Below are positions 2,333-28,771 of a stretch of 64,000 nt of DNA, piece by piece (the first letter of the stretch is position 1; every line of letters starts with the position of its first letter). The DNA comes from Bacteroidetes bacterium GWF2_33_16. Lineage in GTDB: Bacteria; Bacteroidota; Bacteroidia; Bacteroidales; UBA12077. Both the position numbers and the translations under genes were made by a program. Below the pieces are notes generated by a model that saw only the letters and a list, made by a program, of their open reading frames with translations, was not told where the DNA came from and made no database searches. The stretch spans positions 82,267 through 146,266 of the forward strand of contig MEOE01000014.1 of NCBI GenBank assembly GCA_001768565.1. Reading direction: 5' to 3'.

Positions 2333-2389
2333 TGCAGTTTTTAAATTAAAATGTTGTAGAATACTGATTTTGTAACAAACCAAACAAAA

Positions 2390-6127: not shown

Positions 6128-6138
6128 AACCTAAGAAT

Positions 6139-8745: not shown

Positions 8746-8868
8746 TTTGGATATTTTTTGTATTCATTTTTGCTTTTTATTAAATTACTATTGTTTTTTA
8801 AATTAAATACCAATATCTTTCTTTTTGAATTAAGAAAGAATTAATTACTATTTTAATCCATAGAGCAT

Positions 8869-9153
8869 ATGGCAAGTTGCAAAGAATTAAAAAAAGACAT
8901 CAACTTTTTGGCTCAGCAGATAATGACTGAATGTTTTTCGTATTTGGAATATTCACCTGTTAATAACCAGGAAAATGTACTGGAAATATTACACGAAACA
9001 GAAGAGTTACGTCGTGAATTAATATACAGGGCTAATCATTTGCCCAAAGGAACAAAACTGGAAAAAAAGAATTACTATAAAGAAATTAGCGAAGATTTGG
9101 TTAAACGTAATATTGAACTGCTCGATCGACTAAACAGTTTATCCGATTTTTAA
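8869..9153 (+). CDS. Small helical hypothetical protein (94 aa)
   Basis: ATG-initiated ORF followed directly by a strong hairpin; no recognisable motif. Confidence 0.5.
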   Translation: MASCKELKKDINFLAQQIMTECFSYLEYSPVNNQENVLEILHETEELRRELIYRANHLPKGTKLEKKNYYKEISEDLVKRNIELLDRLNSLSDF

Positions 9154-9158
9154 ATAAT

Positions 9159-9196
9159 AAAACAAAGAAGCCGGATTAACCCGGCTTCTTTGTTTT
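9159..9196. terminator. Bidirectional terminator hairpin between convergent genes
   Basis: Perfect 16-bp stem aaaacaaagaagccgg / ccggcttctttgtttt with 6-nt loop, located between 8869..9153 (+) and 9203..11782 (-). Confidence 0.8.
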
Positions 9197-9202
9197 ATTT
9201 AT

Positions 9203-11809: not shown

Positions 11810-12184
11810 CTAAAGTGATAGTGCTTTAACTATTGTTTGAATCTTACTAAAAGAATATGGTTTGGTAAGCAAGTGATTGAATCCTGCATCTTTGTAATCA
11901 TCAAAAAAATCTTCCGGATTGTAAGCAGTGATTGCAATAATTGGAATATTACATAAGGGTGATGATAATCGCCTTCTTATATATTTAGTTGTTTCAAGTC
12001 CATTCATAATAGGCATTTCAATATCCATAAAAACAATATTGATTTTATGGGTTTGCAGTAATTCAATTGCTGTTTTACCATTATCTGCTTCATAAATTTG
12101 AGTACAAAATCCTTTAACTATTTCCTTTAAAAGAATTCTATTCATAAAAATATCGTCAATTATCAAACATGAAAATGGGTTCAT
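11810..12184 (-). CDS. Single-domain response regulator (REC only)
   Basis: IIDD acidic pair, FMDIEMP phospho-acceptor Asp, AITA Thr and LTKP Lys. Starts 3 nt after the Crp/Fnr gene stop. Confidence 0.85.
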   Translation of the reverse strand: MNPFSCLIIDDIFMNRILLKEIVKGFCTQIYEADNGKTAIELLQTHKINIVFMDIEMPIMNGLETTKYIRRRLSSPLCNIPIIAITAYNPEDFFDDYKDAGFNHLLTKPYSFSKIQTIVKALSL

Positions 12185-12187
12185 AGA

Positions 12188-12880
12188 TTATCCGAGTTTA
12201 CTTAATGTATTTATAATATCAAAACTATTTATTTTTATATATCTACCGTCGATATCAATAATTTTATCGTTCTTAAATTCAGCTAAAGTTCTTATTATGC
12301 TTTCTTTTGTAGTACCAGCTAATTCAGCAATTTCAGTTCTCGACAAAGGAAATTCAAATGTATCTGAATTATAAATTTGTTTCGAGAAAAAAAGTAGTAT
12401 TTCTGCAACCCTTCCTGGAAGTTGCTTCTGATTTTGAGTCATCAGTTTATCAAAAAAATAAAGATTGTCAGTGCTTAATAATTGTAGTAATAAAGATGCA
12501 AATTTCCCATTTTGTTCAATAACACTCTTAAATGTTGCGATATCGATGAATAATATTTTAGCGTCAGTGATTGCGGAGGCCGAATAACGAAAAGTTTCCT
12601 CCCCAAAAATTGAAATATTGGCTAAAAAATGCTCAGGGGTAATTATTTTAAAAATGATTACTTTTTTATTACGGCCTTCTTTAAGGATTTTTATTAATCC
12701 CGATTTAATAAACATAACATGCGATGTGCGTGTATTTTGCTTAAAAATAATATCTTTTGCATTAAATTTAACGATATTACTATTATTACTTATAAGTTCA
12801 ATTTGTTCAGAGGTCAGATATTCTGAATAAGGAATTTCACTTTGGGATTTATTTTTAACAGAAGGAGAAACCATAAGCAT
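12188..12880 (-). CDS. Crp/Fnr-family transcriptional regulator (cNMP-binding-like domain + C-terminal HTH)
   Basis: 230 aa, beta-roll-like N-terminal half and C-terminal LSRTEIAELAGTTKESIIRTL helix-turn-helix. No N-terminal Cys cluster, so it is not a classical FNR. Confidence 0.8.
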   Translation of the reverse strand: MLMVSPSVKNKSQSEIPYSEYLTSEQIELISNNSNIVKFNAKDIIFKQNTRTSHVMFIKSGLIKILKEGRNKKVIIFKIITPEHFLANISIFGEETFRYSASAITDAKILFIDIATFKSVIEQNGKFASLLLQLLSTDNLYFFDKLMTQNQKQLPGRVAEILLFFSKQIYNSDTFEFPLSRTEIAELAGTTKESIIRTLAEFKNDKIIDIDGRYIKINSFDIINTLSKLG

Positions 12881-13058: not shown

Positions 13059-13427
13059 ATGAATATAGAAAAAAATATTCTGGTGGTCGATGATTCAGAA
13101 ACAAACCTTGTACTAATAGAAGCTATTTTAGAAGATGAAGGATTTTTAATTAAATCGGCATTTAGTGTAAAGGAAGCTACAGAACTACTTAGTGATTATA
13201 TTCCTGATTTAATCTTGCTCGATTTACTTATGCCAAATGAAAATGGATTCGATTTATTGAAGAAATTAAAATCAAATATTAACTATTCAAAAATACCTGT
13301 AATAATAGTTACAGCCTTTGCAAATAAGGAAAATTCAGCTATGTCATTTGATCTGGGGGCAATTGATATTATCGAAAAACCTATTGATATTCCATTGTTT
13401 TTAGAAAAAGTTAATAAGGCATTATAA
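13059..13427 (+). CDS. Single-domain response regulator (REC only), first gene of the chemosensory cluster
   Basis: VVDDSE, LLDLLMP phospho-acceptor Asp, VTAF, IEKP Lys. Confidence 0.85.
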   Translation: MNIEKNILVVDDSETNLVLIEAILEDEGFLIKSAFSVKEATELLSDYIPDLILLDLLMPNENGFDLLKKLKSNINYSKIPVIIVTAFANKENSAMSFDLGAIDIIEKPIDIPLFLEKVNKAL

Positions 13428-13450
13428 ATAAGCTTTATACCTCATCCAGT

Positions 13451-15232
13451 ATGACAATTAAAAACAAGCCAAATAAAATTGAAATAGATGCTTTGCTGAA
13501 CACATATTCTGTAAAGGAGATAACAGATATGTTCGCTACAATTGACGAGAAAATTATGTCGTTACATGAATGTTCATCTGATGATTTTCTTATGTTAAAT
13601 TCAAGCTTCAAGGATGCGTACAAACTTGCAAAAAGTATTGATTCAAATGTTGCAATTACTTTAAATGATATAGAAAAAATTAATATTTCACAGTTGCTTG
13701 GTACATTAAATGGGTTAAACAAAAAGATAAAGATAATCAATAAAGAAGCTGCAATAATCGATAATCAAATAGTGAAGATTCTTGAAGATTTATTAAATAA
13801 AACCAGATTAGTTTATATCCCTTTAAAAAATCATGGGCAAAATTTAATGAGTCTGAAACTTTTAATCACCAACCTTAAGTTTTATGATTCTACCGATATT
13901 GAGGTAATCCCTGATTTAATTGATTTTATTTTAATATCAGAGCGATTTTTATTAAAAAGTAAAGTATTAACAGAACGAAATTTTAGAGAGGTAAATAATC
14001 TTAGAAAAAAGACAAAAAATTGTATTACTAACTTTAAAATTCTATTAAAAAGTAAATCAGAAATTAATTCCATAATAAATGAAGAAACTGCTAAAACAAT
14101 TGAGTCTCTTCGCAAATTGGATAAATTACTAAAACATAAACCTACACTTAAAAAAAGATGTGATGATTTAAATAATAGTGTTGAATATATAATTACTAAT
14201 TTGCAATATCAGGATATTATCAGGCAAAAAATGGAGCATATTCAACAAACTCATAAAGATTTTTTGCATGAACTTGATACGTTTGATAAAAGCTTTACTG
14301 AGAATAATGTAATCAGTGAAAAGGCAAAACAGTTTGTACGAATACGCGATATCTCTGGATTACATGCAGCCAAATTATTACAAACAAATAAAGAATATCA
14401 GGGAGCAATCGAGGTTATTATAAGAAAGTTCTTGAAAATAAGTGATAATATAGGTAAGAATTCGAATCTTTTTCAAAGCCTAGGAATACAAAAAACTTTC
14501 ACTTCTGAGGACTTTAATAAAATATCAGGTCATCTCGAAAATTGTAAAACAAAACAAAAACAGGTTTGTAATGAATTAAATGCCTTATATAGGGAGTATA
14601 ATCGTGAATTAATTAATGCAAATCAATTAGATGTATTAGAAAAAGACATTCATTTGCATTTTACTCAAAACATAGAACGACTGCAGGATTTCTATCCAGA
14701 TAAAGAAAATACAAAAAGCCATCTAAAACAGTTAATCCAATATATAAATGATTTAAGGTTAAATGTTGATCGTTTAAACAAGCATTTTGTACCAATTTTT
14801 AAATTAAAAGAAGAATTTAATTCAGCGAATTTTAAAATACAGAATTTTAAAAAGCAAAGAGACCTATATGCTCAAACAATAAATAAAAATACCAGGATTA
14901 CAACTATTATTTCTCCTGTAATTGATAAAATAGTTAATAATGAAAAAAACAATATCGAGCTTGTAAATTGTATTAAGCAAGCAACTTCATCGGTAAAATA
15001 CTATGGGTTCTTCGATAATATAATTAATGAGATAATTAATATTCTTGGTAGTATTAATCTTCGTCTTAAAAATTCATATTCAGGAACCATCGATATGGAA
15101 AAAGAAAAGCTTAATCAATTGAAAGAGTATTATACAATGGATATAGAATATAAAATCCATGACCGTGTGCTAAAAACTAAAACAAATAGGAAAACTAACG
15201 AAACGTTGGATAAAGGAATTGAGTTTTTTTAA
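13451..15232 (+). CDS. 593-aa predicted all-helical/coiled-coil protein of unknown function; CheZ-like D-x3-Q motif and MCP-like C-terminal tail
   Basis: Long uninterrupted ORF 23 nt after the REC gene with K/E/N/L-rich heptad-like sequence. Motif LQYQDIIRQKMEHI at nt 14201-14242; C-terminus LDKGIEFF. Function is not assigned. Confidence 0.8.
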   Translation: MTIKNKPNKIEIDALLNTYSVKEITDMFATIDEKIMSLHECSSDDFLMLNSSFKDAYKLAKSIDSNVAITLNDIEKINISQLLGTLNGLNKKIKIINKEAAIIDNQIVKILEDLLNKTRLVYIPLKNHGQNLMSLKLLITNLKFYDSTDIEVIPDLIDFILISERFLLKSKVLTERNFREVNNLRKKTKNCITNFKILLKSKSEINSIINEETAKTIESLRKLDKLLKHKPTLKKRCDDLNNSVEYIITNLQYQDIIRQKMEHIQQTHKDFLHELDTFDKSFTENNVISEKAKQFVRIRDISGLHAAKLLQTNKEYQGAIEVIIRKFLKISDNIGKNSNLFQSLGIQKTFTSEDFNKISGHLENCKTKQKQVCNELNALYREYNRELINANQLDVLEKDIHLHFTQNIERLQDFYPDKENTKSHLKQLIQYINDLRLNVDRLNKHFVPIFKLKEEFNSANFKIQNFKKQRDLYAQTINKNTRITTIISPVIDKIVNNEKNNIELVNCIKQATSSVKYYGFFDNIINEIINILGSINLRLKNSYSGTIDMEKEKLNQLKEYYTMDIEYKIHDRVLKTKTNRKTNETLDKGIEFF

Positions 15233-15245
15233 AAACCAAAAATAT

Positions 15246-15569
15246 ATGAGTAACAAGGATTTTAAAATAAAAACGTTGCCTTCTAAAAACAAAAGGGAGA
15301 AAAAAGCAGAAATAGTCCTCGAAAACGAATTGACTATTTTTACATTAGAAACTCTTCAACACGATTTGGTTAAGGCGCTAAATGAATTTGATGACATTAC
15401 AATAAAGCTTAGAAATATTGAAAATATAGATTTGAGTTTTATTCAGTATCTTTTTTCATTGCAAACATCTGCCGCTGCAAAATCTAAAAATTTGAGCTTT
15501 ACTGCAGAGTATAGCGATGAAATAAAATCATTATTGGTTAATACAGGACTATTAAGATTATTCAATTAA
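15246..15569 (+). CDS. STAS-domain protein (SpoIIAA/anti-sigma-antagonist-like)
   Basis: ~107 aa with STAS-like topology (ENELTIFTLETLQHDL...IDLSFIQYLFSL...LLVNTGL). I prefer ATG 15246 over the track's TTG 15219, which overlaps the upstream gene. Confidence 0.65.
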   Translation: MSNKDFKIKTLPSKNKREKKAEIVLENELTIFTLETLQHDLVKALNEFDDITIKLRNIENIDLSFIQYLFSLQTSAAAKSKNLSFTAEYSDEIKSLLVNTGLLRLFN

Positions 15570-15591
15570 AAATTTATAATTATTTAGTATT

Positions 15592-15957
15592 ATGGCAAAA
15601 ACTATTTTAATTGTTGATGATTCTGAAAGCATTAGAGAAGTAGTAAAATTTACACTCGAAAACGAAGGTTACACCGTTTTGGTTGGTGTGGATGGAAAAG
15701 ATGCTCTAAAATTTCTGGATGGACAAACCATCGATTTGGTTATTACTGATTTACATATGCCAAACATGGATGGTATTGAGCTTATTAAGCATATTCGAAC
15801 AATCGAGGCTTATAAGCGAATTCCTATTTTGTTCTTAACAACCGAATCGCAAGTATCCAGAAAAATGGAGGCAAAAGATGCCGGAGCCACAGGTTGGATA
15901 ATTAAACCATTTGTTCCTACTAAATTGTTAGAAGCACTTAAAAAAGTAATACGATGA
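15592..15957 (+). CDS. cheY: Chemotaxis response regulator CheY
   Basis: VDDSES, ITDLHMPNMDG, LTTES, IIKPF; stop overlaps the cheA start (ATGA). Confidence 0.9.
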   Translation: MAKTILIVDDSESIREVVKFTLENEGYTVLVGVDGKDALKFLDGQTIDLVITDLHMPNMDGIELIKHIRTIEAYKRIPILFLTTESQVSRKMEAKDAGATGWIIKPFVPTKLLEALKKVIR

Positions 15958-18005
15958 GTATTGACAAATTTAAAGACAAATTTAAAGAAGAAGCCTCCGA
16001 TAACATCAATGACTTAGAAAATGCATTGTTGGAACTCGAGAAAAATACGACTAATAAAGATCTTATTGAGCGTGTTTTCAGAGCAATGCATTCACTAAAA
16101 GGAGGTGGTGCAATGTTTGGGTTTACTGCTTTAAGTGAGTTTACACACAACCTTGAGACATTGTACGATAAGGTTAGAAATGGCTTAAAAGTTATTGACA
16201 GAAAAATTCTGGATATCACTTTTGAGGCTGCTGATCATATGAAATCCTTATTGGCTGACGAATTGATGACAAATAATGAAATTAAAACCAAACACAAACA
16301 ATTGGCAGCCAATATTGAGTCTCTGATTTCTGATGATACTCAAACCGATGTAATTCCAAAGTCAGGTTCATCATCCGAATCTTCAATTAAAACATATTAT
16401 ATTTATTTTGAACCAAATCCTGATATTTTTGCCAATGGTACAAATCCCTTATATTTAATTGATGAATTAAATTCTCTTGGTAATTGCAAAGTGTTTGCTC
16501 ATTTTAATAAAATACCTCCAATTGATGAGATTGATATTAATAAATGCTATACATATTGGGAAATTTTATTAGCTACAAGCACTGACGAGAATAGTATTGC
16601 CGATGTTTTTATTTTTGTAGAAGATCAATGCAAACTTGAAATAGATGAAGTTGCTGATAACGATATAACAATCCATGCTGATTTTATACATGCAATTACA
16701 AGATTAGCCATTGAAAAGAAGGATGTTGGAATAGTAGAAATAAAAAATCTTATTAAGAAGCTAAAGTTAAATGCTAATGTAGCTTTAGCGGAATTGAATG
16801 AACCTGAAAAAAGGATTGAGAGCTCTAAGGTTAAAGAAACCACTATTTCAAGTATTCGTGTTTCATCAATTAAATTGGACCAGATGATGAATCTTGTAAG
16901 TGAGTTAGTTACTACTCAGGCAAGATTAACTTTATTTGCAGAGAAAACAAACAATACTGAACTAAATGCAATTGTTGAAAATATGCAGAAACTGTCGCGC
17001 CAGATTCGCGATAATGCATTCGATATTGTTCTTATTCCTATTGAGACAATGCTTATTCGTTTTCAGCGATTGGTTCGGGATTTGTCTCAGGAACTGAAGA
17101 AAAATGTTGTATTCGAAGCTATTGGCGCCGAAACAGAACTTGATAAAACAATCATCGAAACACTTACTGATCCAATCTTACATATTTTAAGAAATTGCCT
17201 TGATCATGGTATCGAATTGCCCGAAGTAAGAAAGAAATTGGGTAAACCGGAACAAGGGAAAATTATTTTAAAATCATTTTATTCTGGAACCAATGTTCAT
17301 ATTCAGATTATTGATGATGGTGCAGGAATTGATCCGGAAAAAATTCGTAAGAAAGCAATTCAAAAAGGAATTATCTCGGAAAATGATGAATTATCAGATA
17401 CTGAAATTTTTGATTTGGTATTTATGCCAGGATTCTCTACAGCCGAAAATGTTACGGATGTTTCGGGAAGAGGCGTTGGAATGGATGTCGTTAAAAGAAA
17501 TATTAATGAGTTAAGAGGGGATGTGGTTGTCGATTCCGAAATTAATAAAGGAACAACTTTAACAATCAGGTTACCACTTACTCTTTCAATTATTGATGGG
17601 CTACTTGTGCGAATTGATAATGATTTATACGTAATTCCATTATCTGTTGTAAATAAAATCCATGTAGTTGATCATGATAGTATTTCATCCAAGTTCAATA
17701 ATTTAATAGTACTTGATGGTGTTCAGTACTCATTCTTTGTACTTAGAAATGAGTTGGGTTATAAGAGCGAGCCACCAAAGACTGAAAGGTTAATACTTGT
17801 ATCATACGAAACTGGATTAGTTGGTTTGGTTGTTGATGAAGTATTCGGAGAAAACCAAGCTGTTTTAAAATCATTAGGGAAATTGTATAAAAATCAGGCA
17901 CTTATTTCGGGTGCTACAATTCTTGGTGATGGTACTGTTGCTCTCGTGCTCGATACTAATAAAATGATTAAGAAATTTTCAAAAAACTCAGAAATAATTA
18001 ATTAA
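15954..18005 (+). CDS. cheA: Chemotaxis histidine kinase CheA (P1 Hpt to P5 CheW-like)
   Basis: Hpt site FRAMHSLKGGG, N box HILRNCLDHGIE, G1 DDGAGID, F box GFSTA, G2 GRGVGMDVV, and a C-terminal CheW-like domain. Confidence 0.95.
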   Translation: MSIDKFKDKFKEEASDNINDLENALLELEKNTTNKDLIERVFRAMHSLKGGGAMFGFTALSEFTHNLETLYDKVRNGLKVIDRKILDITFEAADHMKSLLADELMTNNEIKTKHKQLAANIESLISDDTQTDVIPKSGSSSESSIKTYYIYFEPNPDIFANGTNPLYLIDELNSLGNCKVFAHFNKIPPIDEIDINKCYTYWEILLATSTDENSIADVFIFVEDQCKLEIDEVADNDITIHADFIHAITRLAIEKKDVGIVEIKNLIKKLKLNANVALAELNEPEKRIESSKVKETTISSIRVSSIKLDQMMNLVSELVTTQARLTLFAEKTNNTELNAIVENMQKLSRQIRDNAFDIVLIPIETMLIRFQRLVRDLSQELKKNVVFEAIGAETELDKTIIETLTDPILHILRNCLDHGIELPEVRKKLGKPEQGKIILKSFYSGTNVHIQIIDDGAGIDPEKIRKKAIQKGIISENDELSDTEIFDLVFMPGFSTAENVTDVSGRGVGMDVVKRNINELRGDVVVDSEINKGTTLTIRLPLTLSIIDGLLVRIDNDLYVIPLSVVNKIHVVDHDSISSKFNNLIVLDGVQYSFFVLRNELGYKSEPPKTERLILVSYETGLVGLVVDEVFGENQAVLKSLGKLYKNQALISGATILGDGTVALVLDTNKMIKKFSKNSEIIN

Positions 18006-18013
18006 GGAGGTAA

Positions 18014-18508
18014 ATGATGAAAAATGATTCTCTTATAAAAATAAATTCATATTTATCATTTAAGTTGGGTGATGATGAATTTGCTGCTCATGTTGGTAAA
18101 GTTCTAAATATATTGGAACTGGTAAAAATTACTCCTGTACCAAAATCTCCCGAGTATATGAAAGGCGTTATTAACTTGCGAGGTGCAGTTTTGCCTATAA
18201 TTGACACACGAATGAAATTCGGGATGTCGCCGACTCAATTCACTCAAAATACGTGTATTGTTGTTATGGAAATACTAATGGAAAAAGATACCATACAATT
18301 GGGTGCATTGGTTGATTCTGTTCTCTCAGTTGTTGAAATTGAAGATGATCAGATTCAGCCACCACCAAGCCTTGGTAGTAAATACAAATCTGAATTTATC
18401 TTGGGCGTAGCTAAGGTTGAAGAAAAATTTATTATGATTCTTGATATGGATAAGGTATTTTCTTCTGATGAACTTATTCTTGTCATGGATAGTACTGAGG
18501 ACTTATAA
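18014..18508 (+). CDS. cheW: Coupling protein CheW
   Basis: 164-aa CheW fold (EFAAHV...[16 protein letters not shown]...). Preceded by GGAGG at 18006-18010; the start could be ATG 18014 or 18017. Confidence 0.9.
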
Positions 18509-18518
18509 AAACAAGCTA

Positions 18519-20438
18519 ATGAAATCATTAAATAATATAAAAATTGGTACAAGACTAAAAATTCTTGTAGGATTAGCCATAATCTTTGTAATCTCGTTAT
18601 TGGGTTTTGAAACCTATATTGTTAATAAAAGAGTAATTACAAGAAATACCGATTTACAGGTCTTTTCTAACATTGATCAGATTTCGGACTTGATTGATCA
18701 TCACCTGATATCGGGGAAAGCTCAAATTCATGATGCCATGTTGATTTTGAGTAATACCCTTGGGCAATCAAACAGTTTGACAATTAATAAGGGTAATCAA
18801 GTGCTTTACACTGAAGATATTCAGGGAAATAAAACTAGCTATAATACATATCAATGGAATTTTAAAGGAGAGATAATTAATAAAAACAAGGAATTTATCA
18901 AAAGCTTTGATATGAATGCAGGAGTTAAAGTAACTATGTATCAGAAGTATAAGGATGGTTATTTACTAATTTTTTCAAATATTGATAGAGCAGATCAAAG
19001 TTTTGTTTATCAATCCACGTTGGCTAAATCTCTTCCTGAGATTCAGAAAATTGAAAACGGTGAAAAATTTGAAACTCTTAAAATTGTAAATGGTAACTAT
19101 ATTAATTATTTATGCGATCCCATTTGGCTAAATGGAGAGATCGCAGGAATGGTTGTTTTGCAGAATAAAGCATTAGATTTTTCGGTTTTATCTGAAATAT
19201 TAAAAAGAAAAAAATACTTTGAGGATGGATTTGTTTCATTAATTCGAAACGACGGTTATTTTCTGTATCATCCAGAATTACAAGGCTTGCAAGCAAATCA
19301 GTATAACTTTTTTAAACAACTTGCAAAAAGCACTCAAGAGCAAAATAAAATTGAATTTTTGTGGCCTGAAAATGAATCTGGGAAAACGAAGTTTTTTTAT
19401 TCAAAGTATAAAACAGGACTTGATTTTTATATTACAATTATTTTCGATAAGGGAAATTTATTTGAATCGTTGAATAAACTTGTTATATCGATTTTATTTG
19501 CAATAACTTTAGCCGTATTATTGTTTTTTGCAATAATATCAGCTTTTTCTAAAAAACTTGTTGGCAATATAAACCAGGGTGTCAATTTTGCTCAAAAGGT
19601 TTCTGAAGGTGATTTGTCGGCTACATTTGATTTAAATCAAAAGGATGAAATTGGCGTATTGGCAAATGCATTAAACAATATGGTTGTTCACCTCAGAAGT
19701 ATTGTTGATCAGGTAAATGTTAGCTCAACAAACATTGCATCTGCCAGCCAGGAAATAAATTCAGGTTCGCAGCAGTTGTCCCAAGGAGCAAATGAACAGG
19801 CTGCTTCCACTGAAGAAATATCCTCATCTATGGAGCAAATGGTGGCAAATATTCATCAGAATACAAATAATGCTATCCAAACTGAAAAAATATCGCGAAA
19901 ATCATCTGAAGGAATGCATACTGTGCTTAACTCTGCAATGCAAAACAGAAGATCAATTATAAATATTGCAGAAAAAATTACAATTATAAACGAAATAGCT
20001 TTTCAAACAAATATTCTCGCACTTAATGCTGCAGTTGAGGCTGCAAGAGCAGGTGAGCATGGAAGAGGTTTTGCTGTAGTGGCAAACGAAGTAAGACGAT
20101 TAGCTGAACGAAGTAAGTTTGCTGCTCAGGAAATTGATGAATTATCAAGAACTAGTGTTGATGTTAACGATGAGGTTGCAAAATTGATGGAACAAATTAC
20201 ACCAGAAATTGAAAGAACTTCCAGACTTGTTCAGGAAATAGCCACTTCAAGTCTTGAACAGAATTCTGGAGCTGAACAAGTAAATAGTGCCATTCAACAA
20301 CTGAATCTGGTTACACAACAAAATGCTGCCGCATCTGAAGAATTAGCTTCTTCGGCTCAGCAACTCGAATTTCAGGCAAATAAACTTAAAGAGAATATCA
20401 GGTTTTTTCAAAAGGAATCAACAATCCTGATTAAATAA
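18519..20438 (+). CDS. Methyl-accepting chemotaxis protein 1 (periplasmic Cache-like sensor, HAMP, MA domain; no C-terminal tail)
   Basis: Start moved to ATG 18519 ([10 protein letters not shown]), since the track's 18441 start overlaps cheW. Two TM segments, HAMP ([13 protein letters not shown]), tip [35 protein letters not shown]. Confidence 0.9.
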
Positions 20439-20468
20439 AAAGCTTTTTACTAATCTTAAAATTAGATT

Positions 20469-22418
20469 ATGAAAATAAATGATTTGAAAATAGGAGTCAA
20501 GCTCGTTATAACCCTTATGTCAGTTACTATAATAATTGTACTCATGTTGGGAACATATGCCTATTTAAAAAATAAAACCAGGATTCGAAATTATTCTGAT
20601 GAATATATAAAAGGAGTAATAAACGGATTGGATGAATATATAAATTATCATTTTCTTGATTATAGAAGTAATCAATTAAAATCAAATGATTTAATAGTAA
20701 AATTAATAAATGAAAAAGGAGATATTAATTCTATAACTTCTGATTTATTAAATCAAATTAAGATCATAACAAATACAAGTTCTGCTGTATTTCAAAAAAC
20801 AGCTAAAGGCTTTGTTTGCATTGGTTGTTCAGACAATAAAAAATGGAGTATTGGAGATGTTATTACATTGAGCTCTGATACTGTTATCGAAATAGAACAA
20901 CAAGGTGCATTTTATGATCAATTATTTACTAATTCAATAAAAGAATATGGTATTTACAAACCAATCTATAGTAAAGAAAAACTGCATTCAATAGTATATA
21001 CAGGCACAAATAAAAACTATGTAAATATTGTTTATGAATTATTTAACTCAAAATCATTTTATACTGACGGTTTTGTATTTATGGTATCGAAAAATGGAGA
21101 TATAATAATTGAACCAGAAATTGCTAAAGATTTAATTGATATTGATCTGGTAAAGAATCAGATACTAAAACAAAAAAAAGATACAGGAAAGATTAAATAT
21201 ACTGATGATTCGGGAAATGTAAAATACTTGTATTATAAATTCAACATTAATTCAAATGCATACCTTGGTGCAATGGCATCTGATCAATATATTTTTGTGG
21301 AGTTGGTTAATTTTAGAAAACTTATTTATGTAAGTATTTTCTTTGCTTTAACTATCTTCTTTATTTTACTCGTTTTTATATCAAAAAACATTACAAGACC
21401 ATTAAAAAAAGGAGTTGAATTTGCTCAAGAAGTAACTAATGGAAACCTTGAGGTTACAATAAATATTGAACAGAATGATGAGGTTGGTTCATTAATAAGT
21501 GCACTAAACAAAATGGTACTAAATCTTAGAAATATTGTAACCGAAATAAATACAAGTACCGATCAGATTGCCGTTTTAAGTATGCAAATGAGTTCAAGTT
21601 CACAGCAATTATCTCAGGGCGCAAGTGAACAAGCATCATCAGCCGAAGAGGTTTCATCCTCAATGGAGGAAATGGTTTCAAATATTCAACAAAATGCAGA
21701 TAATGCTCAGCAAACAGATAAAATTTCGCTAAAAGCTGCAGAAGGAATGAATAAGGTTAAAGATTCATCAGCGCATAATTATGAAGCTGTTAATAATATT
21801 GCTGATAAGATTTCTGTCATTAATGATATTGCATTTCAAACCAATATTCTTGCATTGAATGCAGCAGTTGAAGCTGCAAGAGCTGGCGAACATGGAAAAG
21901 GATTTGCTATGGTTGCCAATGAAGTCCGTAAACTTGCTGAACGAAGTCGTGTTGCTGCTGATCAGATCGAGAAACTTTCCAGAACAAGTGTAAAAGCAAA
22001 TGAACAGGTAGCTCGATTAATGGAAGAGATTGCACCTCAGATAGAAACCACAGCAAAACTGGTTCAGGATATTACTGCTGCTAGTCTCGAACAAAACTCA
22101 GGGGCCGACCAGGTAAATAGTGCAATTCAGCAATTAAATCAGGTTACACAACAAAATGCTGCGGCTTCAGAAGAACTTGCTACTAGTGCCGAAGAGCTTG
22201 CCAGTCAGGCGCAACATCTTAAAGATACTATATCCTATTTTAAAATTGGTATCGATAAAACATCCGAAATTGAACAAAAATTAACCAATTATAATGTTAC
22301 GCCCAAAATAATGTCTCAGGATAGTTTTGCAATGAAAGTACAGGATGTTCAAAAATCGGGAGTCGAAATTAACCTAATTGATGATAAAAAATTAGATGAT
22401 AGTTACGAAAGTTTTTAA
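20469..22418 (+). CDS. Methyl-accepting chemotaxis protein 2 (Cache-like sensor, HAMP, MA domain, C-terminal ...[12 protein letters not shown] tail)
   Basis: Same architecture and conserved hairpin tip ([22 protein letters not shown]). ~60-aa linker after the signalling domain, ending in YESF. Confidence 0.9.
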
Positions 22419-22456
22419 TTAAGAAATTATAAATAATAACTCAAAATAAATCAATT

Positions 22457-23176
22457 ATGAAAAAAAGCTACATTTTACTATTGCTTGTATTTACAGCAAG
22501 TATTAATTTCAATGCATTTTCTCAAGAAGATGAAAAATCAGGTTGGGATGCCAGTGTGGGAACCGACCTCGTAAGCAGATATATCTGGAGAGGCCTTGCT
22601 AGTTCAAAAACTCCTGCTTTACAACCATATTTAGAAGTTTCTAATGGAGGATTTGCTATTGGAACCTGGGCTTCTTATACTATTGGTCAGGAAATTATTC
22701 AGGAAATAGATTTGTATGTTTCATACTCAATTGGAGGAGTTACATTCGCTATAACCGACTATTTTGCTTATGAAGATACACTTCCATCGTTCGATTTTTT
22801 TAATTTTAGTAGTAGATCAACCGCTCATTTACTCGATGCTCAATTAGTTTACGAAGGCCCTGAGTCATTTCCCATTAAAGCAACTTTATCTACATTATTT
22901 TTTGGTCCCGATAAAAATGTTGATGGTAAAAATAATTATTCCACTTATATTGAACTTGGTTATAATTTCGGTATAAATGATTTTTCAATTTTACCTTTTG
23001 CTGGATTTAGTGTAAACGAAGGATTCTATAATTCAAAAGCAGGATTTATTAATTGTGGCATTACTGGCGAAAGCGAAATCAAAGTAAATGAAAATTTTAC
23101 TGTTCCAATATCTGTTTCTTTTATTACTAATCCTTTAGATAATAATGCATTTGTAGTATTAATGTTAAGCTTTTAA
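22457..23176 (+). CDS. Signal-peptide-bearing predicted outer-membrane beta-barrel, possibly TorF/Gcw_chp-family porin
   Basis: Signal peptide, alternating-hydrophobic strands, C-terminal aromatic residue (LSF). N-terminal [36 protein letters not shown] resembles the SDYxFRGxSQT..PAxQG motif of the TorF family as I recall it. Confidence 0.55.
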
Positions 23177-23187
23177 AAATTATACAT

Positions 23188-25272
23188 ATGAATAACTTTA
23201 AATTATCCTTACGAGCAAAAATGATATTATTAATACTTTCAACAGTATTTATTGTTTTTGCAGCCATTTTTTCATATCTGGCAATTTCAACCCGGTCTGA
23301 AGCTATTAATAAAGCTAAAGAACTTGCTGTAATAACAGCAAGAAGTGTTGCACACGAAACTGAAGCATTCTTTTCGCAGGGAGCTTTAGTTACAAGAAGT
23401 GTAGCCCAAAACTTACTCGCCTTAAAAGAATCAGGAATGACAGACCGTAAGCATACAAACCAAATTCTAATAAATACTTTGGAACAAAATAAAAATTTCT
23501 TATCATTCTGGACTCAGTGGGAGCTTGGTGCATGGGACGATAAAGACAAACAATATATAAACCAAATTGGATCTGATAAACTTGGAAGATATGCAAATAC
23601 CTATTTCCGTGATCAGGGCAAAACAGTATTAAGTGATGCTACTTTAACTGAGGTAGCAGATGAAGAAGACTACTATGCTATACCTAAAGAAACGAAGAAA
23701 GAAACAATTCTTGAACCTTACTATTATAGCTACACAATTGATAGTGAAACAGAATTTTATGAAACTTCTTTTATAGTCCCTGTTTTATACAAAAAAGAGT
23801 TTTTGGGAGTTGTTGGAGTTGATTTCGAACTAACTGAGTTGCAAAAAATCTGTAACAAAGTAAAATTGTTTAATTCTGGTTATGCATATATAGTTTCAAA
23901 TCAATTCATAATTACTGCATTTAAAGATTCCTCATTTATTAATAAAAACTATTTTGATTTTATTAAAAAAGATGGTGAACTAATAAAAAATGCAATCTCA
24001 TCTGGTTTTGAGTTTAATAATGAAGATATATCATTTCTTGAAAATGAAAATGTCTTTCGCTCGTATGTTCCAATCAAAATTGGTAATACAACTTCTCCGT
24101 GGAGTGTTTGTGTTGAAGTGAATAAGGATGAAATATTAGCAGAAGCACAAGGTAAATTTATAACCATTATCTTAATTGGTATTGCTGGCATACTTATAAT
24201 TGCTATGCTAATTTCAATTATTGCTCGCAACATTACAATTCCTTTATTTAAAGGAGTTGAATTTGCACAAAAAATTGCCGAAGGTGATCTTGAGCATGAT
24301 ATTGATATTAATCAGAACGATGAGATTGGGTTACTTGCCGAAGCATTGCAGAATATGGTGGTTAAGTTACGCGAAATTGTAAATGGTATAATTTTTAGTG
24401 CCGATAATATCTTTTCTGCTAGTCAGCAACTGAGTTCAAACTCCCAGCAAATGTCGCAGGGAGCTAACGAACAAGCATCATCTGCTGAAGAAGTATCGTC
24501 ATCAATGGAACAAATGGCTGCAAATATCCAGCAAAATACCGATAATGCGCAACAAACTGTTAAAATTTCGACCAATGCGGCTGATGGTATGAAAGTGGTA
24601 ATGAAAGCTGCCAAAGATAATAGTATAGCTATTAAGCAAATTGCAAAGAAAATCTCTATAATTGACGATATAGCCTTCCAAACCAATATATTGGCCTTGA
24701 ATGCAGCCGTTGAGGCAGCCAGAGCAGGTGAACATGGAAGAGGATTTGCTGTGGTTGCAAACGAAGTTAGAAAGTTGGCTGAAAGAAGTAAAGTAGCTGC
24801 CGATGAAATTGATACATTGTCAAAATCGAGTGTTGATGTTAATGATGAAGTAACCAAACTTATTGAATCTATTGTGCCAGAAATTGAAAAAACATCAAAA
24901 CTTGTTCATGAAATTTCAGCTGCTAGTCTCGAACAAAATTCAGGTGCTGAACAAGTCAATAGTGCTATTCAACAACTTAGTCAGGTTACACAACAAAATG
25001 CTGCTGCTTCAGAAGAATTAGCTACTAGTTCAGAAGAATTAGCCAGCCAGGCCAAACAGCTTAAAGATAATATTGCGTATTTTAAAACTGGCCTGGAAAT
25101 GGAATATGATGAGGCTGATGATGAATTGGTTGCACTGAAGAAAACAAAAAAAATAGTTTCTAAAACAAAAAAAGTAAATATCGTTAAAAAGACTAAAGGA
25201 AATTCACAACATGGAGTGGAAATAAATCTGAGCGACGATAGAAAACTTGATAGTGATTATGAAAGTTTCTAG
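23188..25272 (+). CDS. Methyl-accepting chemotaxis protein 3 (double-Cache-like sensor, HAMP, MA domain, C-terminal ...[12 protein letters not shown] tail)
   Basis: Cache-like [19 protein letters not shown]...[24 protein letters not shown], tip [22 protein letters not shown], and a lysine-rich linker followed by the YESF tail. Confidence 0.9.
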
Positions 25273-25353
25273 TTTGATTTTTAATTGATGATTGGGTTTT
25301 TAAATTTTAGGTTAAGGTGTTAAATTTTATTCAAAAAAATCATCTTTTGAGAC

Positions 25354-25378
25354 AGAGAGGGAATAAAATTCCCTCTCT
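25354..25378 (+). terminator. Hairpin after MCP3 (possible terminator or processing site splitting the cluster)
   Basis: Perfect 11-bp stem agagagggaat / attccctctct with 3-nt loop, in the only >100-nt gap of the cluster. No T-run follows. Confidence 0.45.
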
Positions 25379-25395
25379 TAAACTATATTTAAAAT

Positions 25396-26253
25396 ATGCA
25401 GGATACAGGTATATTCTCTTTTTATAATGCTAAATTATCTCAGGCTGACTTTGAAAGGTTAAGTCGCTTTATTTTTGATCAGTCAGGAATAAAACTACCT
25501 CAGGTAAAGCTAATTATGCTACAGAGTCGTTTGCAAAAAAGACTCCGCGATTTAAGCATGACTACTTTCAAAGAATACGTTGATTATGTTTTTAGCCCCG
25601 AAGGTCTCGAAAATGAGATTGTCCATATGCTCGATGTAGTTAGTACCAATAAAACTGATTTTTACAGAGAGCCAGTGCATTTCGACTTTTTAAATAATGT
25701 GGCCCTACCAGAATTTTACGAAAATGGAAAAAATCTGAATAATTTTCTAGTTTGGAGTGCTGGATGCTCAAGTGGTGAAGAACCATATACTATTGCATTC
25801 ACATTGTCAGAATTTAGAGAGAAATTTCCAGCTTTTAATTATAATATAATTGCTACCGATATTTCTGCTCAGATTTTAAATAAAGCGAAATTAGCAGTAT
25901 ATAAAGAAGATTTGATTAGCTCGGTACCGTTTTTTATTAAGAAGAAATATATACTTAAAAGTAAAGATCGAAATAATAAAACTATCCGAATTAATAAAGA
26001 ATTAAGAGATAAAGTAAATTTCTTTAGGTTTAACTTTATGGAAACTACTTATAATTTGCCACATATGTTTGATGTTATTTTTTGTCGGAATGTACTTATA
26101 TATTTTACGCGTGAAACTCAGGAACAGGTTCTTATAAAACTTTGCTCAAAACTTAAACCTGGAGGATATTTATTTATTGGACATTCTGAATCAATTCTTG
26201 GAATGGAACTTCCAATTCTGCAAATTAAACCAACAGTTTATAAAAGGATTTAA
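25396..26253 (+). CDS. cheR: Chemotaxis protein methyltransferase CheR
   Basis: N-terminal helical CheR domain, TDFYRE motif, SAM-binding VWSAGCSSGEEPYT, and FCRNVLIYF. Confidence 0.9.
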   Translation: MQDTGIFSFYNAKLSQADFERLSRFIFDQSGIKLPQVKLIMLQSRLQKRLRDLSMTTFKEYVDYVFSPEGLENEIVHMLDVVSTNKTDFYREPVHFDFLNNVALPEFYENGKNLNNFLVWSAGCSSGEEPYTIAFTLSEFREKFPAFNYNIIATDISAQILNKAKLAVYKEDLISSVPFFIKKKYILKSKDRNNKTIRINKELRDKVNFFRFNFMETTYNLPHMFDVIFCRNVLIYFTRETQEQVLIKLCSKLKPGGYLFIGHSESILGMELPILQIKPTVYKRI

Positions 26254-26264
26254 TTCATATAATC

Positions 26265-27191
26265 ATGAGTCAACTAAATGATCAGGAGCTAATTAATGAA
26301 CTTGTAAAACGTTTTGATGAAACGAAGAAAGCATTAAGTGAAGTTCAGAAATTAAATGAAGAACTAAAGGAGGTAAATAAAAAACTTGAAGAATCAGAGT
26401 CAATGAAAAGTCATTTTATTTCAAATATAACAAATGAAATAATTAATCCTTTTGCTTCTATATTAGCTCTTTCAAAAAACATTCTTTCTGTTGAAAAAGA
26501 AAACTGGAAGAAAGTAATTACAATGGTTTCACATATTTATACAGAAGCTTTTCATCTCGATTTTCAATTCCGGAATATTTTTGCTGCAGCAAAGCTTGAA
26601 GCAGGAGAGGTTGTTCCCGAAATACTTAATGTTGATGTAAGTTCACTTGTTGAGAGTATTATAGAGTCCTTTAGCCATTTAGCTAAGAAAAAATTTATTG
26701 GTATTGAGCTAAAAAACGATTTAAAAGAAGAGAAGAGTAAAATTGTTCTATTTAAAACTGATCCTGAAAAATTACGACTTATCATTTCAAATTTATTAAG
26801 CAATGCAATAAATTTTAGTTTCGAAAAAAGTCGAATAATTATAAAAATATGGAAGTCAGAGAATTTTTTATTGATTTCTGTACAGGATTTTGGTACAGGT
26901 ATTTCTGTTGAAAATCAGAAAATCATTTTCGATCGATTTAAGAGATTAAGTTCTGGTATCGATTCTATTAATCGTGGACATGGCTTAGGCCTTTCGGTTA
27001 ATAAAGCAATGATTGATTTGTTGGGTGGTAAAATTGATATTAAAACAGAATTAAACAAAGGTTCGGTATTTACTGTTTGTATTCCTGAATATGATGGAGA
27101 AATATCTGGAATAGCATTCGATGACAACGAATTTTTCTTTAATTCTGATGAAGTTAAAATGTCAGAAAATGATAAAGAAGAAGTCTTTTAA
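26265..27191 (+). CDS. Cytoplasmic histidine-kinase-like protein (coiled coil + HisKA-like + intact HATPase) with the H-box His replaced by Asn
   Basis: H-box region reads KSHFISNITNEIINPF, against the canonical FLxNxSHEIRTP seen in this window's other kinase (AFLTSISHEIRTPM). N box NLLSNAINFS, G1 DFGTGIS, F box FDRF and G2 GHGLGLS are present. The Asn codon is at 26433-26435. Confidence 0.8.
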   Translation: MSQLNDQELINELVKRFDETKKALSEVQKLNEELKEVNKKLEESESMKSHFISNITNEIINPFASILALSKNILSVEKENWKKVITMVSHIYTEAFHLDFQFRNIFAAAKLEAGEVVPEILNVDVSSLVESIIESFSHLAKKKFIGIELKNDLKEEKSKIVLFKTDPEKLRLIISNLLSNAINFSFEKSRIIIKIWKSENFLLISVQDFGTGISVENQKIIFDRFKRLSSGIDSINRGHGLGLSVNKAMIDLLGGKIDIKTELNKGSVFTVCIPEYDGEISGIAFDDNEFFFNSDEVKMSENDKEEVF

Positions 27192-27201
27192 TTTAAATTA
27201 A

Positions 27202-27675
27202 ATGGTGCTTTACGAATCCTTTTTTTTGTATCCTTCGGCCTTATATGCTACACAAAAACCAAATCATATTACTACAATTTTGGGTTCGTGTGTTGCTGTA
27301 TGTTTGTGGGATCCTTTATATAAGTATGGAGGCATGTGCCATTATATGTTGCCATTATGGAATGGTGAGGGATTAGCATCACCAAAATATGGAAATATTG
27401 CCATTGAAAAGTTAATAGAGAAAATGATTTCATTTGGGTCTAAAAAGGAAAACATTCAAGCCAAAATTTTTGGTGGCGGTGATATTTTTCAAAGACGATT
27501 AAATCATTTTAATATTGGTGAGAAGAATATCTGGATTGCTCAAAGCTATCTTAAGGAGCAAAATGTTCCAATTATTAGCTCAAGCACTGGAGGTGAATCT
27601 GGTCGTAAAATTATCTTTAATACATATAATGGTGAAGTAAGGCAACGATATGTAAGAAAACAAACCGAATTATAA
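27202..27675 (+). CDS. cheD: Chemoreceptor glutamine deamidase CheD
   Basis: Typical CheD sequence: [13 protein letters not shown] (catalytic Cys), HYMLP, KIFGGG, NIGEKN. Confidence 0.9.
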
Positions 27676-27685
27676 TTTTAACTCT

Positions 27686-28771
27686 ATGAGTGATAAAATA
27701 AGAGTATTGGTTGTCGACGATTCAGCAGTTGTTCGTCAAAACCTTTCAGATATTATTAATTCAGATCCTGATCTTGAGGTAATGGGAACTGCATCAGATC
27801 CATTTATAGCGGCAAACAAAATAAAAGTAGAAGTTCCTGATGTTATTACACTTGATATAGAAATGCCACGAATGGATGGACTTACATTTCTTCAAAAAAT
27901 AATGTCGCAACATCCAATTCCGGTTGTTATTATTTCTAGTTTAACTGATAAAGGAACAGAAACCGGCATAAAAGCTCTTGAATACGGTGCTGTTGAGATA
28001 ATTACTAAACCACAATTGCATAACAAAGAAGCATTAAATGAATCAAAAATTATTATTTGTGATGCCATACATGCTGCTGCAGGTGCCAAAATCAAAAGAA
28101 AAGTAATAAAGCATACTGTAATGCAGGTTGAACCAAAATATTCTGCTGATGCCATTTTGCCTCCTGTTCAGAATAAAAGCATGATTCATACAACAGAGAT
28201 GGTTGTTGCCATAGGGGCTTCAACAGGTGGAACAGAGGCACTCAATAAACTTATCCAAGAGCTTCCTGCGGATGCTCCTGGTATTGTTGTGGTGCAGCAT
28301 ATGCCTGAAAAGTTCACTACATCTTTTGCAAAAAGATTAAATGAATTAAGTAAAGTAACTGTAAAAGAAGCTGAAGATGGTGATTCTGTGTTTCCTGGAA
28401 GAGTCCTGATAGCTCCAGGGAATTTTCATATGCTTTTAAAACGCAGTGGCGCAAAGTATTATGTCGAAGTTAAAGGAGGGCCGATGGTAAATAGACACCG
28501 TCCTTCAGTAGATGTATTATTCAGATCTACAGCACGATATGCTGGAGCAAATGCTGTTGGTGTTATATTAACTGGTATGGGCGATGATGGTGCAAGAGGT
28601 TTGCTTGAAATGAAGCAGAATGGTGCATTTACAATTGCACAGGATGAAAAATCGTGTGTTGTTTTTGGAATGCCTAAAGAAGCTATTAAGCTTAATGCAG
28701 TTGACAAAATTCTTCATCTTGATATGATTAATAATTCCATTCTTAATTTTGTGAAAAATAGACCTCATTAG
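27686..28771 (+). CDS. cheB: Chemotaxis methylesterase/response regulator CheB
   Basis: REC ([20 protein letters not shown]) plus esterase triad contexts GASTGG, VVQHMP and GMGDDG. Confidence 0.95.

Follow-up and report, generated by a model that had tools for sequence, protein, structure and literature searches.

An F8-like chemosensory gene cluster with uncharacterised accessory proteins in an uncultured member of the Bacteroidales

Chemosensory systems are grouped into classes, and the class table that updates Figure 6 of Wuichet and Zhulin lists for class F8 the auxiliary component CheD and chemoreceptors of the 34-heptad type (34H) without a fixed gene order (PMC9321776 S1 Table). In the same table class F7 has the gene order YAW...R...B, CheD and 36H receptors, the alternative cellular function class (ACF) the order WRW...ABO, a CheA fused to a receiver domain (REC), a CheR with TPR and 40H receptors, and the type IV pilus class (Tfp) a CheA with five to six Hpt domains and REC as well as 40H receptors (PMC9321776 S1 Table). 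F8 is a class without an assigned function in any organism. For Pseudomonas syringae pv. tomato it was shown that the F8 system (cluster II/che1) forms its own array and is not required for chemotaxis, and no function is known for it. For the 'stage 1' F7 clusters Ortega et al. described the order anti-sigma antagonist, cheY, cheA, two cheW, an Aer2-type receptor gene, cheR, cheD, cheB, a second antagonist and a Ser phosphatase gene; these systems have been linked to stress, and in the tree of that study F8 falls together with early F7. Moreover, the STAS protein CheS of Sinorhizobium meliloti and Agrobacterium binds CheA and speeds up the turnover of CheY1~P. Here, we describe a che-type gene cluster from Bacteroidetes bacterium GWF2_33_16, located in a 64-kb stretch of contig MEOE01000014.1 (positions 82,267 to 146,266; 64,000 nucleotides; in the following called the window), which was inspected using the list of its open reading frames (ORFs) with translations and domain scans with Pfam and NCBIfam.

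With a probability of roughly 0.6, judged from sequence, this locus would encode a complete and functional F8-type chemosensory pathway that is native to an uncultured lineage of the Bacteroidales and that has a non-flagellar output. A preliminary description of the DNA had recognised a cluster of 14 che-type genes at positions 13059-28771, and the ORF listing together with the Pfam and NCBIfam matches bears this out: 14 consecutive co-directional ORFs lie on the plus strand with an intergenic spacing of -14 to +38 nt, the sole exception being 123 nt in front of cheR. The encoded pathway comprises three transmembrane 34H methyl-accepting chemotaxis proteins (MCPs), two of them with Cache-type sensors and one flanked by a TorF-type porin, CheW, CheA, CheY and the adaptation proteins CheR, CheB and CheD. 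Accessory genes encode a stand-alone receiver (REC1), a helical protein of 593 residues (H593), a STAS protein and a kinase-like protein of 308 residues (HK308, in the following K); a second stand-alone receiver (REC0) is encoded divergently (Table 1). For MCP1 the start at 18519, taken from the gene call of the source contig, is more likely than the TTG at 18441. The catalytic signatures that had been described as intact in CheA, CheB, CheR, CheD and the receivers are all readable in the translations. In CheA these are H46 together with the four ATP-binding boxes N, G1 (DDGAG), F and G2 (GRGVGMD); CheB has GASTGG, QHMP and GMGDDG, CheR the S-adenosylmethionine motif WSAGCSSGEEPYT and CheD the Cys and His motifs GSCV and CHYMLP. 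CheY shows the receiver residues D9, D10, D53, T83 and K105, and equivalents are present in REC1, REC0 and the REC of CheB.

The receptors carry the assignment to a class. Compared with the structures of E. coli Tsr (36H), MCP3 misses 4+3 residues in the descending N-terminal arm and seven in the ascending C-terminal arm, and in a multiple alignment the same symmetric 7+7 deletion relative to Tsr, i.e., one heptad per arm, is found in MCP1 and MCP2 as well as in receptors encoded in the clusters of Marinilabiliaceae, Prolixibacteraceae, Chondrinema and Methylosinus. By these alignments all three MCPs of the cluster are 34H. Because the 34H receptors are combined with CheD, and further because CheA has a single Hpt and no REC and CheR no TPR, the cluster fits class F8, by the published criteria rather than by class-specific hidden Markov models (HMMs) or a CheABR tree. 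Consistently with F8, no cluster ORF matches CheC, CheX, CheZ or CheV in Pfam. The order YAW...R...B with CheD, as in F7, is present (S-Y-A-W-M-M-porin-M-R-K-D-B); however, the 36H receptors of F7 are not. Class ACF was rejected due to a CheA without REC, a CheR without TPR, 34H receptors and a different gene order, and class Tfp due to the single Hpt, the missing REC and the 34H receptors. The suggestion of the preliminary description that the pathway has an alternative cellular function thus fails if it is taken in the sense of the ACF class, as F8 is nominally one of the 'flagellar' F classes. It had also held that a full flagellar regulon together with membership in a standard flagellar class would speak against its reading; this applies by half, as F8 formally is an F class. 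The tblastn identities are graded, with 39% for Azospirillum, 38% for Methylosinus (34H cluster), 33% for E. coli F7 and 31% for Listeria.

CheY scores 104.8 bits against the PDB entries 4h60/4hnr and about 81 bits against flagellar CheYs. The proteins in 4H60/4HNR are CheY4 of V. cholerae (cluster III), which is phosphorylatable, does not bind FliM and carries a Trp at the Y106 switch position; Trp102 of the window's CheY stands at this position and corresponds to W101 of VcCheY4. CheR has its best PDB match in the Salmonella enzyme (1af7/1bc5), which aligns without gaps over the beta-subdomain. The loop of this subdomain has the length of the pentapeptide-binding Salmonella enzyme and is four residues longer than that of P. 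aeruginosa CheR1; the glycines of GxX, the insertion found in pentapeptide-binding CheRs, are not conserved (SKDRNNK). Aromatic C-terminal pentapeptides are of the kind that tethers CheR and CheB. Such a pentapeptide is defined by aromatic residues at positions 2 and 5 and follows a linker (PMC7390727); it is found in MCP2 (SYESF) and MCP3 (DYESF) and is absent from MCP1, and orthologous receptors end in EYEQF, NYEKF, EFERF or DYERF, the pattern of these tails being [YF]-E-x-F.

The host had been placed in the Bacteroidota, and this placement is supported by the homologs as well as by synteny. The best named homologs of CheA, K and H593 are labelled 'Bacteroidales bacterium', 'Bacteroidetes bacterium GWA2_31_9b', Tenuifilaceae and Williamwhitmania taraxaci, with Marinilabiliaceae also among the closest ones, and the flanks of the cluster are syntenic with AP027304, a complete Tenuifilaceae genome. 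An identical CheA sequence occurs on a contig of 281.6 kb in a groundwater metagenome assembly (ENA ERZ909587 / SRR1658471). In a scan of one genome per species, CheA identity amounts to 83% and 79% in metagenome-assembled genomes (MAGs) of Bacteroidales and Bacteroidetes, to about 49% in Marinilabiliaceae (among them, in culture, Saccharicrinis aurantiacus, Labilibacter sediminis, Plebeiibacterium marinum and P. sediminum) and to about 42% in Prolixibacteraceae, Sunxiuqinia and an Odoribacter MAG, and the order of the core genes is kept throughout. Because the identity drops with taxonomic distance, because the GC content of the cluster (0.27-0.34) equals that of the rest of the window and because of the synteny with AP027304, the cluster is native to Bacteroidia and ancient, neither a chimera nor a recent import. 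An origin from Ignavibacteria, which would explain che genes via flagella, was rejected, the closest homologs and the synteny being those of Bacteroidales, Tenuifilaceae and Marinilabiliaceae. A 105-kb contig labelled 'Thiohalospira sp.', a gammaproteobacterium, encodes a CheA and a K that are 62-68% identical to those of the window and is probably a mis-binned Bacteroidales contig.

Mapping of the window proteins onto related loci with phmmer separates a constant core from variable parts. The core consists of STAS, CheY, CheA, CheW (sometimes two), usually at least one MCP, CheR, K, CheD and CheB, and STAS lies upstream of cheY in nearly all of these loci. In relatives the gene order is conserved for the core from STAS to CheB; this does not hold for the porin, which is confined to the nearest relatives (L003 and L004), nor for REC1, H593 and the flanking genes, which occur in subsets. 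REC1 and H593 lie 5' of the core in L003, the nearest relative, as well as in Tenuifilaceae and the divergent contig L030, with weaker matches in L006, and the two genes are paired in L003, L030 and L034. The 14 genes stand as a cluster, and the conserved unit is larger: the genes for the Crp/FNR-family regulator and REC0 (11810-12880, minus strand) and for the GAF-3xPAS protein (28923-31199) are syntenic in relatives. In L003 as well as in AP027304 of Tenuifilaceae the Crp regulator is likewise placed divergently, REC0 is syntenic in L003, L006 and L034, and the GAF-PAS gene after cheB is kept in Marinilabiliaceae and Tenuifilaceae; in the Prolixibacteraceae loci a TPR-histidine kinase and a REC directly follow cheB instead. 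The extra parts had been called non-standard, and they now appear less exotic: a STAS gene 5' of cheY-cheA is typical of the ancestral F7 and the alphaproteobacterial CheS clusters, K and H593 recur in many such clusters, and a histidine kinase (HK) gene is listed among the gene-order symbols used for che clusters (PMC9239204).

Further observations were made in the related loci. TPR signalling proteins recur right after cheB, sometimes overlapping it, namely a TPR-adenylate/guanylate cyclase in L036 (2523-4499) and a TPR-histidine kinase with REC in the Prolixibacteraceae loci L019, L020, L023 and L025. The TPR-cyclase after cheB elsewhere and the cNMP-binding Crp regulator upstream in the window hint at a link to cyclic nucleotides. 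Most Marinilabiliaceae loci (L005-L018, L021; locus coordinates about 9600-10000) have a separate ORF of 127 residues, weakly CheA-like, just before cheA, and all of these loci encode a second CheR-like protein, a CheB-like protein and more PAS proteins 3' of GAF-PAS (18400-21500). Finally, the divergent cluster L033 carries an extra REC-HisKA-HATPase-REC hybrid kinase gene (8442-10001) between cheR and K.

Table 1. Features of the chemosensory locus and its neighbours in the window
Feature	Position	Strand	Evidence
Crp/FNR-family regulator (cNMP-binding + helix-turn-helix (HTH)); divergent neighbour	12188..12880	-	Pfam cNMP_binding + HTH_Crp_2
REC0, stand-alone receiver, downstream of Crp gene	11810..12184	-	Pfam Response_reg 7e-23; D10, D11, D54, T86, K108
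REC1, stand-alone receiver, first gene of the cluster	13059..13427	+	Pfam Response_reg 1.7e-24
H593, all-alpha 593-aa protein, uncharacterised family	13451..15232	+	no Pfam/NCBIfam domain
STAS protein, CheS-like position 5' of cheY-cheA	15219..15569	+	Pfam STAS_2 7e-07
CheY, V. cholerae CheY4 type	15592..15957	+	Pfam Response_reg; best PDB match 4h60/4hnr
CheA: single Hpt, H-kinase_dim, HATPase_c, CheW domains, no REC	15954..18005	+	Pfam; NCBIfam CheA 1e-119
CheW	18014..18508	+	Pfam CheW 2.6e-35
MCP1: transmembrane, dCache (Cache-like periplasmic domain), HAMP, 34H MCPsignal, ends ...STILIK	18519..20438	+	Pfam
MCP2: transmembrane, HAMP, 34H MCPsignal, C-terminal DSYESF	20469..22418	+	Pfam
Gcw_chp/TorF-family putative outer-membrane porin	22457..23176	+	Pfam Gcw_chp 2.3e-08; NCBIfam TorF family
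MCP3: transmembrane, dCache, HAMP, 34H MCPsignal, C-terminal SDYESF	23188..25272	+	Pfam
CheR methyltransferase (CheR_N + CheR), without TPR	25396..26253	+	Pfam CheR 2.7e-59
HK308 (K): soluble 308-aa HisKA-type DHp + ATP-binding core, Asn57 replaces phospho-His, C-terminal EEVF	26265..27191	+	Pfam HATPase_c; NCBIfam
CheD receptor deamidase	27202..27675	+	Pfam CheD 1.9e-27; NCBIfam CheD 5e-40
CheB (REC + methylesterase)	27686..28771	+	Pfam, NCBIfam; Ser/His/Asp motifs present
GAF-3xPAS protein, membrane-anchored, no output domain, C-terminal VDLF; downstream neighbour	28923..31199	+	Pfam
TPR-HisKA-HATPase histidine kinase, possibly associated	31267..33627	+	Pfam

The accessory protein that the preliminary description termed HK-like, or a pseudo-kinase, is K. 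Its likeness to a kinase stands, and it can be refined to a full HisKA-type DHp+CA core in which an Asn takes the place of the phospho-acceptor His: residues 41-274 align with the DHp+CA core of the NCBIfam HK models, the N, G1, F and G2 boxes are present, and in BLASTP Asn57 falls on the phospho-His of the window's own TPR-histidine kinase (31267-33627). Asn was found at the H-box of K in 18/18 orthologs from related Bacteroidia loci. A search of 1.84 billion representatives yielded at least 901 members of the family at E<=1e-30, and among the top 150 the H-box is readable in 134, with Asn in 130 of these and with long conventional kinases accounting for two of the four exceptions. Retained in the orthologs are E58 and N61 (N-E-x-x-N-P) as well as all four boxes, N, G1, F and G2. 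A shifted acceptor, His50, located seven residues upstream, was considered and dismissed, as His is found there in just 59 of the 134 representatives. The gene lies directly upstream of cheD in all 24 recovered contexts that carry K. This also includes position in distant relatives: five divergent representatives are all encoded in che clusters right before cheD, with stop and start codons sometimes overlapping, in the arrangements S-Y-A-W-M-R-K-D-B, ...R-B-K-D and K-D-B. One of these divergent contigs has 61% GC and carries TctABC and a sigma-54 activator, therefore K is not confined to low-GC Bacteroidales. The clusters of Chondrinema and Methylosinus have neither K nor CheD, and in a tblastn search of plasmids with K the top full-length match (Caballeronia) is an ordinary hybrid kinase outside a che cluster.

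DivL of Caulobacter is a pseudo-histidine kinase that binds DivK~P, the E-x-x-N motif is the catalytic pair of CheX/CheC, and the phosphatase motif of HisKA proteins is H-E-x-x-N/T. K resembles DivL in having a HisKA fold without the acceptor His, and it resembles CheX/CheC and the phosphatase state of HisKA proteins in retaining E-x-x-N. However, in contrast to DivL, CheZ, CheX and CheC it is a soluble protein of 300 residues that occurs only in che clusters and always next to CheD, with an acidic tail usually ending in Phe. A role of K as Ser kinase for the STAS protein is disfavoured, as the STAS orthologs vary at the Ser position and some clusters have STAS but no K. The K gene has already been noticed in the literature on che-cluster gene orders (PMC9239204); no characterisation of it was found.

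H593 has no match in Pfam or NCBIfam. It has 214 homologs, all of about 600 residues, the named ones of which belong to Bacteroidales or Tenuifilaceae. Their motifs are an invariant LQYxDIIxQKxEH, YTMxxExxxH and a C-terminal IEFF, and the invariant residues include Q252, D255, Q259, K260, H263, Y517, Y518, F521, Y561, T562, E566, E591 and F593. An AlphaFold2 model (pLDDT 78) predicts an all-alpha protein with 12 helices, eight of them 44-75 residues long, and 50 disordered residues at the C-terminus; in Foldseek it matches only generic coiled coils of the PDB with a TM-score below 0.3. The H593 HMM matches a hypothetical protein of 575 residues (E=1e-19) encoded after cheB in a Methylosinus plasmid cluster of the order STAS-Y-A-W-M-M-W-R-B with 34H receptors. 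As Methylosinus is an alphaproteobacterium, the H593 family is thus a cross-phylum accessory of this type of cluster. The relative (L029 19431-21158, Methylosinus sp. C49 plasmid pMSC49c) has segments similar to the hairpin tip of MCPs, LTLNAKIEAARI and LVGINAALKSRHFG (E=1.5e-8), which are kept only by this member. Because there are two such segments, the family may have descended from a receptor with a double signalling domain. H593 itself was rejected as an MCP, as it has no MCPsignal match in Pfam and a probability of 0.2% in hhalign against the cluster MCPs. The comparison with CheZ gave nothing significant either (no Pfam match; 0.2% in hhalign against E. coli CheZ); only locally does H593 show CheZ-like traits, namely an invariant mid-helix Y-Q-D-x3-Q and an acidic tail ending in F, as in the CheY-binding C-terminus of CheZ.

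The ends of several of these proteins are alike. Among the 15 proteins from REC1 to GAF-PAS, five have an [E/D]-x-F C-terminus, i.e., H593 (KGIEFF, 15230), MCP2 (DSYESF, 22416), MCP3 (SDYESF, 25270), K (DKEEVF, 27189) and GAF-PAS (ISVDLF, 31197), compared with none of the 32 other ORFs of the window (hypergeometric p ~0.002). The tails are also conserved: K ends in Phe in 119 of 120 close homologs and has Glu at -3 in 109, H593 ends in [ILV]-E-[FL]-F in 115 of 120 homologs, and the GAF-PAS orthologs end in VELF or VDLF. The published pentapeptide definition applies to the receptor tails only. The similarity of the tails suggests a common docking partner, which might be the pentapeptide site of CheR/CheB, the TPR of the kinase or cyclase encoded downstream, or a receiver, as in the case of CheZ and its C-terminal peptide. 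As a speculative extension, which we consider rather improbable as a whole, F8 clusters could form a tether network in which the tails of receptors, K, H593 and GAF-PAS dock to one and the same site, be it a receiver, the pentapeptide pocket of CheR/CheB or the TPR of the kinase downstream, in which K together with CheD would be a new CheY~P phosphatase and by which gliding or Crp-dependent transcription would be steered by periplasmic ligands in Bacteroidia that lack flagella.

A mechanism for the pathway may be proposed as follows. Ligands would enter the periplasm, perhaps via the co-encoded porin, and the receptors would modulate CheA; CheA~P would then feed CheY, CheB and probably REC1 and REC0. 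By analogy with CheS, the STAS protein might modulate the traffic of CheY while bound to CheA, and would then not be an anti-sigma antagonist. K is predicted not to autophosphorylate at the canonical site, and it would have an intact nucleotide pocket, keeps E-x-x-N and appears to be translationally coupled to CheD. As there is no CheZ, CheC or CheX in the cluster, K could be a stand-in phosphatase: it may bind and dephosphorylate CheY~P or another REC~P, the coupling to CheD then being analogous to CheC-CheD. The output would most likely be a protein-protein switch exerted by CheY~P or REC~P and not the flagellar motor, with the Crp regulator and REC0, GAF-PAS and the TPR kinase as nearest output candidates in this lineage. 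That the output is probably non-flagellar is in line with the preliminary description, which suggested an alternative cellular function of the pathway: Bacteroidetes are regarded as lacking flagella (PMC6767994), and the CheY is closest to VcCheY4, which cannot bind FliM.

Three other explanations for the output have to be weighed. The pathway could, as the main alternative, steer gliding, e.g., the reversals or the speed of movement by the type IX secretion system (T9SS) and SprB, and would then be the counterpart in Bacteroidia of Frz in Myxococcus. Transmembrane receptors with periplasmic Cache domains and full adaptation suit the sensing of gradients, a single-domain CheY must bind a target, and cultured Marinilabiliaceae (Saccharicrinis, Labilibacter, Plebeiibacterium) as well as Williamwhitmania are among the carriers; however, most carriers are MAGs for which motility is not established, and neither the window nor the inspected 10-kb flanks of the related loci contain a gld, spr or por gene. 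Moreover, F. johnsoniae and C. hutchinsonii, which are well-studied gliders, are not known to have che genes, and we consider a role in gliding unlikely. Ordinary flagellar chemotaxis with flagella encoded elsewhere in the genome, which would be unusual for Bacteroidia, is highly improbable. It would agree with F8 being formally an 'F' class (PMC9321776 S1 Table), with the inspected DNA covering 64 kb of the genome and with flagella in Ignavibacteria of the wider Bacteroidota/Chlorobi group (PMC3362086). However, the closest relatives are Bacteroidales and not Ignavibacteria, in a phylum held to be without flagella (PMC6767994), the CheY belongs to the CheY4 type that fails to bind FliM, the cluster has no CheZ, CheC, CheX or CheV, and F8 is dispensable for chemotaxis even in the flagellated P. 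syringae.

Alternatively, STAS and K might form a partner switch of the RsbV/RsbW or CrsA/CrsR type by which CheA/CheY control a sigma factor, as was proposed for Shewanella Che1 and RpoS. A STAS protein and a GHKL ATPase in one putative operon, the anti-sigma antagonists and the Ser phosphatase of ancestral F7 clusters and an extracytoplasmic function (ECF) sigma factor gene about 10 kb downstream are compatible with this, as is the tie of Shewanella Che1 to RpoS regulation (PMC9855816). The position of the phospho-Ser of SpoIIAA, however, is occupied by S, T, G or A in the STAS orthologs (Gly in Tenuifilaceae as well as in the nearest relative, Ala elsewhere), and because this position varies, a classical partner switch via the STAS protein appears unlikely. 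Furthermore, K has a HisKA DHp+CA core and is not of the RsbW type, its match to HATPase_c_2 reaching E=0.025 only, the Pfam scan of the window ORFs revealed no PP2C/SpoIIE gene, and the clusters of Chondrinema and Methylosinus have STAS but lack K. Taken together, a switch of this kind is very unlikely.

Several points also weigh against the reading of the locus as a functional F8 pathway with non-flagellar output. The F8 label rests on receptor class, CheD and gene order, not on phylogeny. A scan for promoters and terminators gave no signal beyond chance, so that the operon status is suggested by spacing only. The Pfam scan of window ORFs revealed no flagellar, pilus or gliding genes, in agreement with the earlier statement that no motility gene is adjacent, but it covers 64 kb of a 281-kb contig, and the rest of the genome was not scanned. 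The phosphatase role of K is suggested by the retention of a motif, and its conserved ATP-binding domain could instead point to a kinase substrate. Finally, Crp/REC0 are conserved only in the Tenuifilaceae-like clade and not in Marinilabiliaceae and Prolixibacteraceae and therefore would not be a universal output.

The remainder of the window offers other features. The other scanned ORFs comprise genes for redox enzymes and peptidases, for an ECF sigma factor, RNase Y and a TonB receptor, and a polysaccharide locus; scans for tRNAs and Rfam families gave no matches in the window, and an exact look-up of RNase Y retrieved no record. At 554-6594 a NuoF-like flavoprotein of 592 residues is followed by a fusion of 1245 residues (2Fe-2S, GltD-like pyridine-nucleotide oxidoreductase, ferredoxin and molybdopterin-oxidoreductase) and by rubrerythrin; this looks like an unusual fused dehydrogenase module, possibly an electron-bifurcating one. 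A protein of 666 residues (6745-8745) combines three LysM repeats with a periplasmic ligand-binding domain of the ANF_receptor type, which is an odd pairing. Over the distal polysaccharide-biosynthesis locus (56000-64000; WbqC-like, acetyltransferases, KAS III-like, glycosyltransferase) the GC content falls to 0.23-0.28, which may mark a variable O-antigen or capsule segment subject to horizontal exchange.

In the literature searched no paper connecting F8 with Bacteroidota was found, and 34H and STAS are unmentioned in the Geobacter che paper. Chemoreceptors of Bacteroidetes are already present in databases and their high pentapeptide content was remarked on (PMC7390727), and che genes were noted in passing in an oral Bacteroidales MAG. 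The F8 class and the STAS-first gene order are known already, and the locus is a further example of a described class. Apparently uncharacterised are its accessory parts, i.e., the His-less HisKA cores of about 300 residues with Asn next to CheD, the helical family of 600 residues in Bacteroidales and an alphaproteobacterium, and the E-x-F tail shared by four protein families. If the reading given here is true, F8 is not only intact but also widespread and conserved by vertical descent in an order for which flagella are not known, which would provide a clean setting for defining the role of F8 without flagellar cross-talk, and several carriers are in culture (Saccharicrinis, Labilibacter, Plebeiibacterium, Williamwhitmania). 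If the genome has flagella or if the accessory proteins are inert, this would be merely one more annotated che operon.

As a summary, the locus can be set against three described types of system. It shares with F8 of P. syringae that the cluster itself encodes a 34H receptor ending in a pentapeptide, and it has CheD, the auxiliary component tabulated for the class (PMC9321776 S1 Table). The CheR of P. syringae F8 carries a beta-subdomain insertion, and the loop of the window's CheR has the length seen in the Salmonella enzyme. However, P. syringae is a flagellated host with three other che systems, whereas the order of the window's host is not known to be flagellated, and the window cluster additionally carries REC1, H593, K, the porin and the GAF-PAS neighbour. 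The ancestral F7 systems (V. cholerae cluster III, P. aeruginosa Che2, S. oneidensis Che1) have the same S-Y-A-W-M-R-D-B order apart from K and a CheY of the CheY4 type; their receptors carry E-W/V-E-x-F pentapeptides, and their output is non-flagellar and linked to stress. They differ in their 36H Aer2-type PAS-haem receptors without periplasmic domains, in a second STAS protein and in the Ser phosphatase, whereas the receptors of the window are 34H and transmembrane, PP2C is missing and K is inserted before cheD. The CheS systems, finally, resemble the locus in that the window protein is small, consists of STAS only and is encoded just upstream of cheY-cheA, a comparison by position and not by sequence; in contrast to what is proposed here, the output of CheS systems is flagellar, and a second CheY serves them as phosphate sink.

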